A stretch of DNA of 32,158 nucleotides from an uncultured Muribaculaceae bacterium. Lineage in GTDB: Bacteria; Bacillota_I; Bacilli_A; RF39; UBA660. The number at the start of each line of letters is the position of its first letter. Position 1 is the stretch's first letter. Below, piece by piece: positions 1 to 20,895 of the stretch. The DNA lies in NCBI GenBank assembly GCA_964520725.1, contig CAZFQF010000001.1:1-32158 (forward strand), read 5' to 3'. A program made the position numbers and the translations under genes. Below the pieces are notes generated by a model that worked only from the letters and a program-made list of their open reading frames with translations, was not told where the DNA came from and did no database searches.

Positions 1-1070
1 ATGAATGTTGAATCATCATTGTTGATTGTTCCAATAAACCATAGATTCTCAGGTAATTTAAATTTACCCTTGATAATATTTTTAGGATCATCTGGCCATC
101 CACTTGTAACTAGTTCAACAATCCATTCATCTCTAGATGGCATCTCTAAAATGGATAACATTTCCGCAAAGTAATATTCAACCCGAGCAATGTTCATTTC
201 ATCTAGGATTACAGTATGAACATCGTCATTATAACCTGCAGTATAAAGTTCAGCTAAAACATCAGTTTCATTAAATTTTTTGGTAAACTCATTGAAATAT
301 CCTAAAAATTCGGTTTTATCTCGCCAAGAAGGCTCTACTGATGCTACACAAGAATCATTTTTAACATATTTACCCCAAGCATAAGCTAAGGAAGTTTTAC
401 CTGTTCCAGATATACCTTGAAGAATAACTAGCCTTCCACAAGCAAGTCCTGCTAGAAAACTTCTAATAATTCCCATGTCATAATAAAGTTTTAATTGACT
501 TGCTGCATAGGCTTTAAAGTTTTCAGCTACCTCATTTAAAGTATAGCCATTAGCATATCTTTTAACTTTATAGTTTTTCATATTATTATCAATATTTGTT
601 AATTTAGGGAATCTTGAATTAGCTGTATCAGTTTCTAGCTCTTCATTATTTTCTTCATCTGACATTAATTTTTCTTCTTCACCAGGTTTTAATCCTAATT
701 GGGAAACCTTCATAGCCATTATTTCGTTTTTCTCTTTCATTAGCTTATCAACTTGTTTATATAAACTATCGATTTCATTTAATAGATCTTCTTGATTTAA
801 TTTAGTTCTTCCTGCCCTAATTGCTTTTCTGATTCCGAAAATTATTAGGGTTATAATAGATCCTAAGATAATAACTACAATTGCGATTACTAAACCTACT
901 AATAACCATTCAGCACCAGAAAAACTATCTTGGTAGCTTGTTAAAATTGATTTATATTCATTATAATTAACAATTTGAACTATTCCTTTTCCAAAACCAT
1001 TTAGGATATCCATTATCCCAGTGAAAAAGACAGAAATAAATTCGTAAAAAAATCTAAAAAATGTATTCAT
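1..1070 (-). CDS. Membrane-anchored AAA+ NTPase of the McrB/AAA_5 type (N-terminal 356 codons only; the gene runs off the window start)
   Basis: Absent from the ORF track because its stop lies outside the window. My minus-strand translation from ATG 1070..1068 stays open to position 1 (MNTFFRFFYEFISVFF...). SD GAAGGTGA lies 7 nt upstream, and the start is 3 nt after the stop of the upstream gene. It has one TM segment (WLLVGLVIAIVVIILGSIITLIIFGI) and a charged coiled-coil-like linker. Then come Walker A LQGISGTGKTS, a McrB-like Walker B region VILDEMNIARVEYYFAEMLSILE, and FIGTINNDDSTF (compare McrB MNTADRS). Confidence 0.7.
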   Translation of the reverse strand, partial: MNTFFRFFYEFISVFFTGIMDILNGFGKGIVQIVNYNEYKSILTSYQDSFSGAEWLLVGLVIAIVVIILGSIITLIIFGIRKAIRAGRTKLNQEDLLNEIDSLYKQVDKLMKEKNEIMAMKVSQLGLKPGEEEKLMSDEENNEELETDTANSRFPKLTNIDNNMKNYKVKRYANGYTLNEVAENFKAYAASQLKLYYDMGIIRSFLAGLACGRLVILQGISGTGKTSLAYAWGKYVKNDSCVASVEPSWRDKTEFLGYFNEFTKKFNETDVLAELYTAGYNDDVHTVILDEMNIARVEYYFAEMLSILEMPSRDEWIVELVTSGWPDDPKNIIKGKFKLPENLWFIGTINNDDSTF

Positions 1071-1073
1071 CTA

Positions 1074-19417: not shown

Positions 19418-19422
19418 AATTT

Positions 19423-20895
19423 TTAAATAACGTTTACTTTTAATATTATTTGCTCAGCATAATTTCCTGCCCAATCGCTAACATCATATGTTACATAATA
19501 AGTTCCTGGGATATTAGTATTAACAGGATTAGTAACTACAATTCTTCTGGTTAAGTCTTCAGTTAAATCTCCACTTTCATCTTCTCCATATTTATCAATT
19601 GCTGTTGCAGTTGGTAAGACTAATTTTTCTCCCTGATTGATATTAATTTCTGTATCACTTGGATCAATACTAATAATTGGTGCCCAAACATCACTTCCAT
19701 AATCTGGCCCTTTTTCATGATCGATATCTTCTTCATTAAATCTTTGTTTAGTAAATCCAAACTCTATAGAAATTCTTTTACCAAGAGCTGCAAAATCATA
19801 GTTATCTATATCTTGTCCTTCAATATAAATGTATATTCTTACTTTAGTTATACTATTAGCTCCTAAAGTAAAAATTTCTGTTCTATTTGTCCCTTCATTT
19901 TCCTTAAGTGTATCAGTAAAAAATGGAAAGTTAGTTAATTTAGTAGTATTATTGTAGCTATTATATATTCCATCATAAATATCAACGTTATCTGCTGAAG
20001 ATATCGGACTATTTATAACATACGTCGGATAAGCAACGCCATCTTTTAGCGTTTTACAACTTCCTCCATAAGATGAGTCTTTAGTTAAGTCACTACCGGT
20101 TCTTTTTAAACACGATTTATTATACCAAGAAATAGCATTAATATTATGTAATGTATCGTTCGGTTCCCAAATTGCAGCATTACGACATATTCCTGTTACT
20201 CCTTCAGATATTGTTGGCTTTCCCTCAGAATTGCCATTACATTTAATTCCAGTGATTATATTAGGATCCGTTGTATTTCCAGCTACTCTTCCAACTTGGG
20301 CAAAAGCAACTCTTACTGAATTTTCAATTCCTGTTCCTAAATTCCCTGTAGCTCCAATAGTTACTAATGAGTCAGCTGTCAAATAAATAGCCTCTTCATC
20401 TAAGGCATTTAATTCACTTATATATTTTCTACCTGATAAATTTTTAATAAATAAATCAAAAGCAATATAGCCACCAGGATTAGTTGTTTTATTATTAACT
20501 AAGCTAGCCATTATCCTATATCCTCCTGGCGTAGCCGTAAAACTAGATTTTTCATACAATTTCATTCTTGAAGATAAAACATCCATTTCTCCTACAGACG
20601 ATAAAGGAATTAATCCTTTACCTCCCCAGGTGTTAGTATTTCCTGAATAAACAGTATTAGTATCATTATAATTATCTTCAGAAATAAAAACTGTTGTATC
20701 CCATCTGCGGCCATTTAATGATAGTAATAAACTATCGGTTACCGCAATTCCAATATCGAAACTAGACATATTAACAGTTCTAAGACCGACAAACCATGCA
20801 TAAGTCGAAGCCGAAATTATAATAGCTGTTAGCGCAAAGATTATTATTAGATTTTTAGCTTTACTCTTGGGTTGATTTTCATTTTTTTTCATCAT
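19423..20895 (-). CDS. Secreted fibre-subunit candidate, paralogue C (490 aa), with a C-terminal DUF5011-type Ig-like domain
   Basis: SD AGAGGT. The start may be the second ATG (20892). The N-terminus reads AKNLIIIFALTAIIISASTYAWFVGLRTVNMSSFDIGIAV, and the core motifs are conserved. The C-terminus reads DVWAPIISIDPSDTEININQGEKLVLPTATAIDKYGED...GTYYVTYDVSDWAGNYAEQIILKVNV. Confidence 0.75.
   Translation of the reverse strand: MMKKNENQPKSKAKNLIIIFALTAIIISASTYAWFVGLRTVNMSSFDIGIAVTDSLLLSLNGRRWDTTVFISEDNYNDTNTVYSGNTNTWGGKGLIPLSSVGEMDVLSSRMKLYEKSSFTATPGGYRIMASLVNNKTTNPGGYIAFDLFIKNLSGRKYISELNALDEEAIYLTADSLVTIGATGNLGTGIENSVRVAFAQVGRVAGNTTDPNIITGIKCNGNSEGKPTISEGVTGICRNAAIWEPNDTLHNINAISWYNKSCLKRTGSDLTKDSSYGGSCKTLKDGVAYPTYVINSPISSADNVDIYDGIYNSYNNTTKLTNFPFFTDTLKENEGTNRTEIFTLGANSITKVRIYIYIEGQDIDNYDFAALGKRISIEFGFTKQRFNEEDIDHEKGPDYGSDVWAPIISIDPSDTEININQGEKLVLPTATAIDKYGEDESGDLTEDLTRRIVVTNPVNTNIPGTYYVTYDVSDWAGNYAEQIILKVNVI

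Follow-up and report, generated by a model that had tools for sequence, protein, structure and literature searches.

A SipW-type signal peptidase locus with TasA-type junction motifs and an McrB-like GTPase as a candidate extracellular polymer system of uncultured Bacilli

The first 20,895 positions of a 32,158-nucleotide stretch of DNA from an uncultured bacterium (contig CAZFQF010000001.1 of GenBank assembly GCA_964520725.1; the whole stretch is referred to as the window) contain a gene cluster which, with a probability of roughly 0.55, constitutes a dedicated system for the export, processing and assembly of an extracellular protein polymer, either fibre or matrix, of the CoCoPALM type, CoCoPALM being the name given to a clade of McrB GTPases of the NxD type (Bell et al. 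2024). The SipW logic is common to this locus and to TasA, while its major building block is no recognisable TasA relative. Among Firmicutes, SipW/TasA fibres are the standard example of matrix fibres made without a sortase, and their assembly outside the cell is regarded as spontaneous, requiring no energy input. A preliminary description of the window, made from the sequence alone, had read the locus as an expanded SipW/TasA fibre system; from this reading the SipW organisation and the TasA-type junctions are retained, whereas TasA kinship of the major subunits and a contribution of glycosylation are not.

The locus consists of 14 co-oriented minus-strand genes, running from N to A within positions 1–20895 (Table 1), in a window of approximately 25% G+C. 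All genes listed in the preliminary description are present on that strand, and only its count of about 16 has to be lowered. A species-representative genome collection yielded 235 stretches with a relative of D, one of the major-subunit genes, and the best 80 of these gave the 73 related loci compared here (individual loci are denoted by L numbers), which derive from metagenome-assembled genomes (MAGs) of uncultured Bacilli, Mollicutes, Tenericutes and Erysipelothrix type from gut, rumen and digesters. One gene order recurs among them, namely C, one to six major paralogues, E, F, I, J, K, L, M and N. Considering only loci whose flank suffices for the count, adjacency is kept from E to F in 51 of 56 cases, from F to I in 43/44, from I to J in 37/37, from J to K in 34/34, from K to L in 23/23, from L to M in 16/20 and from M to N in 9/9. 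The locus is supported as a conserved multi-gene system and not a chance neighbourhood, and the conservation of gene neighbourhood, which had been proposed as a check at the outset, was found.

Seven secreted products of the locus share a junction directly after their hydrophobic segment, and every string quoted for it in the preliminary description was recovered exactly: STYAWF in A, B and D, STYAWL in E, ITYTFAKY in K, ITYSLLY in J and PTLASF in I. In orthologues from the 73 related loci, the pattern [TS][YFWLM][AS].[FYWL], sought directly after the first hydrophobic segment, is present in 22/22 sequences of A, 53/54 of B, 86/87 of D, 54/57 of E, 36/38 of J, 28/32 of K and 29/41 of I, corresponding to 71–100% per family, as compared to 6 of 115 (5%) control open reading frames (ORFs) from the same loci that likewise start with an N-terminal hydrophobic segment. 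The identical pattern matches 117 of 117 bona fide TasA homologues, and the mature TasA chain in PDB entry 8AUR, against which the TasA sequence was verified, starts at A28, right after GTWA. Judged from sequence, the junction motif of the locus is the TasA junction motif, occurring far above chance, so that the likeness to the TasA junction suggested at first reading holds. Including X3 and X4, two further secreted proteins encoded in related loci (see below), eight to ten proteins possess a Sec-type N-terminal helix ending in T-[YFL]-[AS]↓x-[FYL], with the arrow marking the putative cleavage point. The motif was found in none of 57 orthologues of C.

Within the major-subunit family, mean column conservation amounts to 0.61 in the h-region, 0.96 at the junction, 0.83 in the next 17 residues and 0.66 in the rest of the protein. 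A variable h-region followed by a conserved junction and mature N-terminus is the profile of a cleaved signal peptide with a functionally critical mature N-terminus and not that of a type-IV-pilin helix. In the AlphaFold2 (AF2) monomer model of D, the conserved N-terminal stretch (residues 31–40) is predicted with a local confidence score (pLDDT) of only about 51. An N-terminus that is conserved and yet modelled with low confidence in the monomer would be the pattern expected of a segment that folds only in the assembly.

The same data bear on the alternative that the N-terminal helices are retained, either as permanent membrane anchors or as a type-IV-pilin-like core, with the junction serving as a folding or docking motif. 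The AF2 models of D and J do show one N-terminal helix of approximately 35 residues, the NTPase of the locus is reminiscent of pilin-extraction motors, and C, which is devoid of the motif, looks like a true anchor. Nevertheless, we consider this alternative unlikely, as an h-region that is the least conserved part of the protein next to an almost invariant junction is the opposite of what type IV pilins display, while a small residue at −1 and Thr/Ser at −3 are found as at the proven TasA site, and two predicted active SipW paralogues are dedicated to the locus. Moreover, compared with type IV, Tad and archaellum filaments, the conserved motif lies after the hydrophobic segment and not before it, the sole NTPase is McrB-like, and neither PilC nor a G↓F-type class III leader is present; Pfam and NCBIfam scans of the locus gave no match to a prepilin peptidase or PilB. 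The same scans contain no match to a sortase, and an LPXTG-like motif was not found in the last 60 residues of the 14 locus proteins, which bears out the earlier statement that neither the sortase route nor the PilB/PilD/prepilin route is represented.

A dedicated signal peptidase is encoded by M, which scores 66.1 bits with model TIGR02228 (cut-off 51.85) and matches the model of Bacillus SipW with an E-value (E) of 2.4e-11, while a profile of 11 orthologues retrieves human SEC11A/C from the PDB (E 6e-6). Its Ser box DSMEE and His box THRV are both intact, and Ser63-Met64, His99-Arg100 and Gly113-Asp114 are invariant in the 11 orthologues. M is predicted to be an active SipW/SEC11-type signal peptidase and corresponds to the one intact endoplasmic-reticulum-type peptidase of the preliminary description. 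Its topology comprises a first transmembrane (TM) segment at residues 15–33, a peptidase domain on the outside, a second TM segment at 145–163 and approximately 560 cytoplasmic residues, which are composed of an acidic low-complexity linker and a conserved C-terminal domain. The fusion noted earlier is real in its architecture; its signalling character is not confirmed, as the C-terminal 540 residues gave no match in a Pfam or PDB profile search. An EAL-like or 'signalling' reading of this domain, based on loose strings picked out by eye, was discarded after these searches had returned nothing. Linkage of the homologues to SipW-type peptidases in other genomes, in turn, is kept in related as well as distant loci.

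The neighbouring L exhibits the two-TM topology of SipW (13–31 and 152–170) and matches the stand-alone SipW family of the related loci along its entire length (probability 94.4%, E 9e-8, in local hhalign, which was used for all profile–profile comparisons among families). In this alignment the catalytic Ser is replaced by Gln and the catalytic His by Ile or Gly, and 13 orthologues of L contain no conserved Ser or His aligned to the catalytic positions. A direct comparison of L with M is weak (15.6%). L is predicted to be a conserved, catalytically dead SipW paralogue, i.e. a pseudo-peptidase. A sortase-like nature of L was also considered and rejected, PDB profile matches to SrtA being insignificant (E 0.3).

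With B and A sharing 62% and 59% identity with D, respectively, the three large secreted proteins are paralogues of one family; DUF5011 (PF16403) is detected in B at residues 411–483 (E 1e-22) and in A (E 3e-9). More than 2,200 proteins are closely homologous to D; each is annotated as 'hypothetical' or 'DUF5011', and none has a Pfam domain on the core. From a set of 1.84 billion cluster representatives, the D profile retrieves 1,244 at E<=1e-3, of which 217 reach E<=1e-30. E is a full-length homologue of D (hhalign 100%, E 2e-51) which is present in 73/73 related loci, where it is single-copy and always located after the major paralogues, while the major-subunit gene occurs in one to six tandem copies per genome (L063, L061, L041). 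Major subunits share 55–65% identity across lineages, and 40% of their columns are conserved in at least 90% of the sequences. In the extracellular core of the D family, C235, C245 and C271 are invariant and C291 is found in at least 90% of sequences; the four conserved cysteines point to two structural disulfides or a metal site. One locus (L049) contains an orphan 755-aa member of the family amid unrelated neighbours.

The preliminary description had regarded the major paralogues as TasA-type proteins and had suggested Foldseek and profile comparison with TasA as a check. This identity is not confirmed. The AF2 model of D (pLDDT 77.6; predicted TM-score, pTM, 0.79) gave no fold match when searched with Foldseek against the PDB, which includes TasA (best E 1.7, TM-score <0.15), or against BFVD, and a D-family profile found no match among PDB sequences, AbpA included. 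Neither at E<=0.1 nor at E<=10 does a protein of the window match the TasA/CalY family PF12389. A TasA-family profile reaches a hhalign probability of at most 1.3% with the D, E, C, K and I families, and for A, B, D and E kinship with TasA was rejected, hhalign values being below 1% both with the single TasA sequence and with its family.

A different role in the same structure is conceivable for C, which carries a strong N-terminal TM segment at residues 25–43 and is found in 58/73 related loci. Over its C-terminal 68 residues C resembles E (hhalign 72%, E 3.5e-5), with common strands of the type WLEG(Q/T)D... that are also like those of D. Because it has no aromatic junction motif, C is a candidate membrane anchor or base.

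It is at this point that a two-dimensional surface layer or envelope coat has to be weighed against a fibre. Here, A, B and D would be the tiles of the coat and C its membrane anchor, in hosts that are reduced, thin-walled or wall-less Bacilli or 'Mollicutes'-like bacteria. A large (400–500 aa), strongly conserved major subunit in one to six tandem copies, a predicted D fold unlike that of solved pilins, host labels such as Mollicutes, Tenericutes or Bacilli MAGs, and a conserved TM-anchored relative of the C-terminal strands of D and E would all suit such a coat. However, the window also encodes a VanY-like (25878–26837) and an LD-carboxypeptidase-like (27986–29104) protein, both peptidoglycan-trimming, and the host is therefore probably walled. 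In addition, giant proteins of tip-like kind, small adaptors resembling TasA and a set of three SipW paralogues do not normally accompany an S-layer, and the promoter/terminator layout around the major genes fits a pilin-like stoichiometry equally well. Overall, we regard a surface layer as doubtful.

J is the sole component for which similarity to the TasA family is detectable by sequence: its family aligns with a TasA-family profile of 56 homologues at 90.2% (E 1.5e-6), limited to TasA residues 1–83, i.e. the N-terminal half with signal peptide, first strands and PGD...N.G motif, and at 57.7% with the single TasA sequence. The AF2 model of J (pLDDT 79.6) retrieves generic jelly-roll folds (CBM, Eph LBD, PHM) in Foldseek at E ~1e-3 and TM-score ~0.3, and the 50 matches listed do not include a TasA chain. 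K is related to J over its N-terminal core of about 300 aa (hhalign 76%) and carries a Laminin_G_3 domain at residues 338–487 (E 9.5e-16). This LamG extension occurs in only 3/37 K orthologues, namely those of the window, L002 (15436–17304) and L003 (18335–19951), whereas the other 34 end at about 300 aa. Being limited to the window and its two closest relatives, it is a recent, clade-specific and accessory addition to K; the lectin-like domain reported earlier exists, as such an addition. The giant protein I consists of Gly-rich repeat motifs and immunoglobulin (Ig)-like modules and is a candidate adhesin or tip component. Its profile gave no informative match in the PDB, and only weak similarities were obtained (3n6z, a 'putative IgA1 protease', E 0.029; an OmpL47-type Ig-like domain, E 7e-7). 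The GLUG annotation previously attached to this 1217-aa protein was abandoned: Pfam reports no GLUG repeat in I at E<=10 and none in 14 orthologues.

F did not match any entry in Pfam, NCBIfam, PDB or PADLOC. F-like proteins are encoded in the distant loci L075 (E 4e-61) and L077 (E 6.5e-31), and F is a conserved system component that occurs also in distant variants. The preliminary description spoke of cytoplasmic helical proteins in the plural; F qualifies, having no TM segment, and is the only one.

In contrast to these components, the pair H and G does not belong to the system. H is assigned to PF01040 (E 6e-24), scoring 201 bits with NF008977, just under the cut-off of 234, and G to PF19558 (E 2.3e-18), and it was this UbiA/DUF6080 pair that had been interpreted as a polyprenyl-phosphate-sugar glycosylation pathway of the fibre. 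Each of the two genes is absent from all 73 related loci, for which reason a glycosylation pair as part of the system was rejected. Since the pair is moreover flanked by bidirectional hairpins (12458–12479 and 10180–10195), it is best understood as a local, window-specific insertion. The region in between (10180–12479) has the lowest G+C of the window, approximately 0.21, suggesting that the insertion into the cluster was recent.

A profile of full-length orthologues of N matches the Escherichia coli McrB structures 6hz4, 6ut6 and 7vsr over approximately 210 residues (E 3e-5 to 7e-5). N displays the Walker A motif GISGTGKT and the motif G-T-I-N-N-D-D-S, that is, NxD followed by a second D, and contains a TM segment at residues 60–78 which precedes a short heptad or coiled-coil-like stretch. 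N is predicted to be a membrane-anchored McrB-like GTPase of the NxD type, the clade being assigned by motif only. The membrane-bound AAA+ NTPase of the preliminary description is confirmed in its anchoring and refined from a generic AAA+ protein to an McrB-type GTPase. Its N-terminal region gave no FtsB/DivIC match in Pfam at E<=10, and only weak matches to Saf_2TM, DUF948 and Snapin; residues 1–85 show a sub-threshold similarity (E 0.001) to a SAVED-fused 2TM effector domain.

The gene immediately upstream of N is M, and in L018 the stop codon of M overlaps the start codon of N. As the contig ends inside N, an McrC homologue and a second peptidase fall outside the window, and tblastn found no X1 within it. 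All related loci that reach beyond this point have X1, X2, X3 and X4 after N (Table 1). X1 (~375 aa), located directly after N in L018, L027, L028, L040, L068 and L073, is recognised by its McrC N-terminal domain (DUF2357, E 4.4e-11), with no nuclease domain detected by Pfam. X2 (~190 aa), two genes after N, is a canonical stand-alone SipW (TIGR02228, 68 bits). X3 (~405 aa) and X4 (~206 aa, opposite strand) are secreted and exhibit the junctions TLAWF and TYSRY, respectively. Comparison of F, X1, the M C-terminus and N with each other by hhalign did not indicate any relationship.

The combination of an NxD McrB GTPase with signal peptidases is not entirely without precedent. Bell et al. (eLife 2024; PMC11090510) described a clade of NxD McrB GTPases, named CoCoPALM, in three sentences and deferred a fuller description, and a literature search found no follow-up paper on it. 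According to these authors, the N-terminal TM/coiled-coil region of the CoCoPALM GTPases is FtsB-homologous and signal-peptidase-family genes are associated with them; furthermore, CoCoPALM was placed beside the CoCoNuTs, which are predicted defence systems. The present locus matches this class by sequence, sharing with it the NxD McrB-like GTPase with an N-terminal TM segment and coiled-coil-like stretch, the adjacent signal-peptidase genes, the affiliation with Bacillota and, in related loci, an McrC homologue (DUF2357) with no Pfam-detected nuclease domain. As CoCoPALM had already been flagged by Bell et al., the peptidase–NTPase link is not reported here for the first time. The two differ in that the FtsB homology stated in the paper is not detectable in N with Pfam, and in that the paper describes neither substrates nor the TasA-type junction, the major-subunit family, the dead peptidase, the peptidase fusion or F.

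The proximity of CoCoPALM to CoCoNuTs raises the question whether the McrB/McrC-like pair is an anti-phage core, with SipW and the secreted proteins acting as surface sensors or effectors, e.g. in receptor remodelling or shedding. Indeed, N matches not only McrB but also the PADLOC model PDC-M26A (E 2.9e-39), and its N-terminus has the weak, below-cut-off resemblance to an effector domain mentioned above. Yet the other components gave no match in the PADLOC scan, and X1 carries DUF2357 with no Pfam nuclease domain. The cluster is stably syntenic beside housekeeping genes and is no variable island, N is 56–71% identical between lineages, which is atypical for defence genes, and some ten dedicated secreted structural proteins would be hard to account for as effectors. 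A defence function is thus improbable.

Alternatively, a surface-protein cluster (C to L) and a separate McrBC-like module (starting with M and N) might merely be unrelated neighbours. In 4/20 loci M is not downstream of L, and in some genomes (L073, L068, L040) the M-N-X1-X2-X3-X4 module lies on the other side of the cluster, upstream of C, so that the order is permuted and the linkage kept. However, the module stays adjacent on either side (L073, L068, L040, L018, L048), and it contains SipW peptidases as well as secreted proteins, X3 and X4, with the same junction motif. Distant variants, in which the D-like protein reaches only ~150 bits, even interleave both gene sets in the order X1, SipW, X4-like, F-like, SipW, SipW, X3-like, C-like, D-like, their C-like proteins matching with E 1e-76 to 1e-83. 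This interleaving makes a chance association of two unrelated modules very unlikely and largely refutes it. In the distant loci L075 (1023–1726, 4874–6438) and L077 (1025–2357, 6240–6812), two or three SipW paralogues stand in a row; one SipW of L075 is apparently split, and in L077 a sortase gene follows just after the cluster on the opposite strand.

Among characterised systems, the Bacillus operons tapA-sipW-tasA and sipW-tasA-calY (TasA; PDB 5OF1, 8AUR) are comparable in several respects: a dedicated SipW-type peptidase is encoded beside its substrates, the junction is T-aromatic-A↓x-F, several paralogous substrates occur per operon, no sortase is involved, and the small jelly-roll protein J shows profile similarity to TasA over the latter's N-terminal half. 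In contrast, the locus comprises 10–16 genes instead of three, its major subunits are twice the size of TasA with no detectable homology or fold match to it, and the system possesses three SipW paralogues, of which one is dead and one carries a cytoplasmic domain of ~560 aa. It also includes a GTPase/McrC-like pair and a cytoplasmic protein, which are not needed for TasA assembly. Kivimaki et al. (bioRxiv 2024.11.04.621531) found genes of the TasA/BsaA superfamily to be common, as several paralogues, in filament operons that include SipW; no description is given there of the D family, the dead peptidase, the peptidase fusion, F or the shared junction motif. The sipW-bsaA-bsaB-bsaC operon of Clostridium perfringens (Obana 2020; 2024.11.04.621531) is likewise led by SipW, encodes multiple TasA-superfamily paralogues and belongs to an anaerobic Firmicute. 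Donor-strand exchange has been proposed for its subunits, and its polymer is anchored to the membrane rather than the wall, which adds to the likeness. The Bsa subunits, however, can be recognised as relatives of TasA (an N-E-K isopeptide triad occurs in some), and type IV pilus genes and a vWA protein are connected with their secretion, whereas the present locus has no type IV pilus or vWA link, encodes an McrB-like GTPase and builds on a sequence-unrelated major family. Further parallels exist to the archaeal AbpA pili of Pyrobaculum calidifontis (PMC9245690) and the eukaryotic SEC11 complex, which share the archaeal/endoplasmic-reticulum-type Ser-His peptidase; SEC11A/C are the best PDB matches of M, and the SEC11 complex likewise combines an active subunit with non-catalytic membrane partners. 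Still, no subunit homology to AbpA was found (PDB profile search and Foldseek both being empty), and L is a SipW duplicate, not an SPC22/23-type subunit.

From these comparisons, the following working model of the polymer system can be sketched, whose steps beyond motif carriage and SipW adjacency are inferred. Subunits would be inserted by Sec and remain tethered by their N-terminal helix until M and/or X2 cleave at TYA↓WF or at sites of the T-Y-S↓x-[FY]/T-[FL]-A↓[KRN]-[FY] class, and the two motif classes may map onto the two predicted active peptidases, M and X2. Cleavage would free the very highly conserved mature N-terminus WFxGMxTVxV..F.V.IA, which could then pair with a neighbouring subunit like the TasA donor strand. 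The shaft or lattice would be made up of A, B and D, with a promoter-like site ahead of each (A and B having own sites, with a terminator-like hairpin after D), while the single-copy E and the uncleaved-looking TM protein C may serve as terminator or initiator and as membrane base. J, K and I might represent adaptor and adhesin parts, and the dead peptidase L could hold the junction motif uncut as a platform or anchor. Finally, a membrane GTPase ring of N and X1, together with F and the cytoplasmic tail of M, may gate or power cleavage and assembly from inside.

Several observations weigh against an assembly system of this kind. The major subunit is unrelated, by sequence or fold search, to TasA, AbpA or any solved pilin, and polymerisation by N-terminal donor-strand exchange is therefore an analogy only. 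The similarity between J and TasA covers just the signal peptide and first strands, and the fold matches of J are generic. No NTPase is required for fibres of the TasA type, which leaves the role given to N, X1 and F a matter of guesswork, and N has its closest characterised relatives among restriction and defence proteins. Furthermore, the major subunit is 55–65% identical across many MAG lineages, an unusually high degree of conservation if it were an exposed pilin. A more far-reaching version, namely a new class of Gram-positive surface filament or lattice machine with new-fold subunits, Sec-dependent delivery and SipW-dependent release, polymerisation under control of a membrane-anchored McrB/McrC-derived GTPase ring taken over from restriction for building an organelle, and a dead-peptidase platform, can be put forward tentatively at best, with odds somewhat below even.

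Table 1 Genes and putative regulatory sites of the locus (window positions unless a related locus is named)
Feature	Description	Position	Strand	Remark
N	Partial McrB-like AAA+ GTPase (predicted), N-terminal 356 aa	1-1070	-	cut by contig end
M	723-aa SipW/SEC11-type signal peptidase (predicted) with cytoplasmic extension	1074-3245	-	
L	179-aa SipW pseudo-peptidase (predicted)	3806-4345	-	
K	495-aa secreted protein, junction TFA↓KY, C-terminal LamG/ConA-like domain	4384-5871	-	
J	193-aa secreted jelly-roll protein, junction TYS↓LL	5861-6442	-	
I	1217-aa secreted giant protein, junction TLA↓SF	6432-10085	-	
H	UbiA-family decaprenyl-phosphate phosphoribosyltransferase-like membrane enzyme	10239-11153	-	
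G	DUF6080 polytopic membrane protein	11143-12405	-	
F	543-aa cytoplasmic protein with no TM segment or known domain	12471-14102	-	
E	354-aa minor paralogue of major-subunit family, junction TYA↓WL	14270-15334	-	
Hairpin between D and E	Terminator-like, 12-pair stem	15362-15389	-	
D	450-aa major-subunit paralogue, junction TYA↓WF, Thr/Pro-rich C-terminal tail	15455-16807	-	
C	230-aa protein, N-terminal TM segment and outside beta domain	16833-17525	-	
Site upstream of C	Promoter-like, TTGACA-17-TAAAAT	17587-17615	-	consensus match only
B	487-aa major-subunit paralogue, junction TYA↓WF, C-terminal DUF5011 Ig-like domain	17767-19230	-	
Site upstream of B	Promoter-like, identical to that of A	19319-19346	-	consensus match only
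A	490-aa major-subunit paralogue, junction TYA↓WF, C-terminal Ig-like domain	19423-20895	-	
Site upstream of A	Promoter-like, TTGACA-16-TAAGAT, extended -10 TG	20944-20971	-	consensus match only
X1-X4 stretch	Genes following N in related loci	L018:4401-8038, L073:5341-8924, L068:5277-8938, L040:5183-9015, L048:93-3188		

Regarding the regulatory sites, the total count of promoter-like sequences is not above that of shuffled sequences, and the three best minus-strand matches are those in the gaps before A, B and C; terminator-like sites number 10 as compared to 3.9 +/- 2.3 in shuffles. The gap between L and M (3246–3805) is unusually long, with 560 bp as opposed to 100–250 bp in related loci, and contains only a 45-aa ORF (3402–3539, minus strand) and a promoter-like site with extended -10 just before M (3299–3270); it could be a decayed gene or indicate a separate M-N transcription unit. 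Upstream of A, a DUF2207-LemA pair and a 241-aa TM protein (21012–24116) show synteny with no more than the three or four closest genomes (L002, L003, L015) and are local neighbourhood outside the system. As for the hosts, many cluster-bearing MAGs labelled 'uncultured Muribaculaceae' or 'Ignavibacteriales' (e.g. L003, L005, L028) share the low-G+C Bacilli-type locus at 55–60% protein identity, and these labels look like default or mis-assigned taxonomy, or possibly mis-binned contigs.

With this locus, CoCoPALM, so far a mere name, acquires concrete content in the form of substrates, a cleavage motif and a gene order, while the SipW logic is extended by a subunit family of ~1,240 clusters with no Pfam model or solved relative, three peptidase paralogues and an McrBC-derived module. 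If the far-reaching version of the model is true, it would be the first NTP-coupled pathway of SipW/TasA type and the first non-nucleic-acid job for an McrBC module. Should the parts indeed work together, a restriction-type AAA+ motor would have been re-used for envelope biogenesis, and the locus would explain how the main surface structure is built in uncultured Bacilli (RF39- or 'Tenericutes'-like MAGs) from gut, rumen and digesters.

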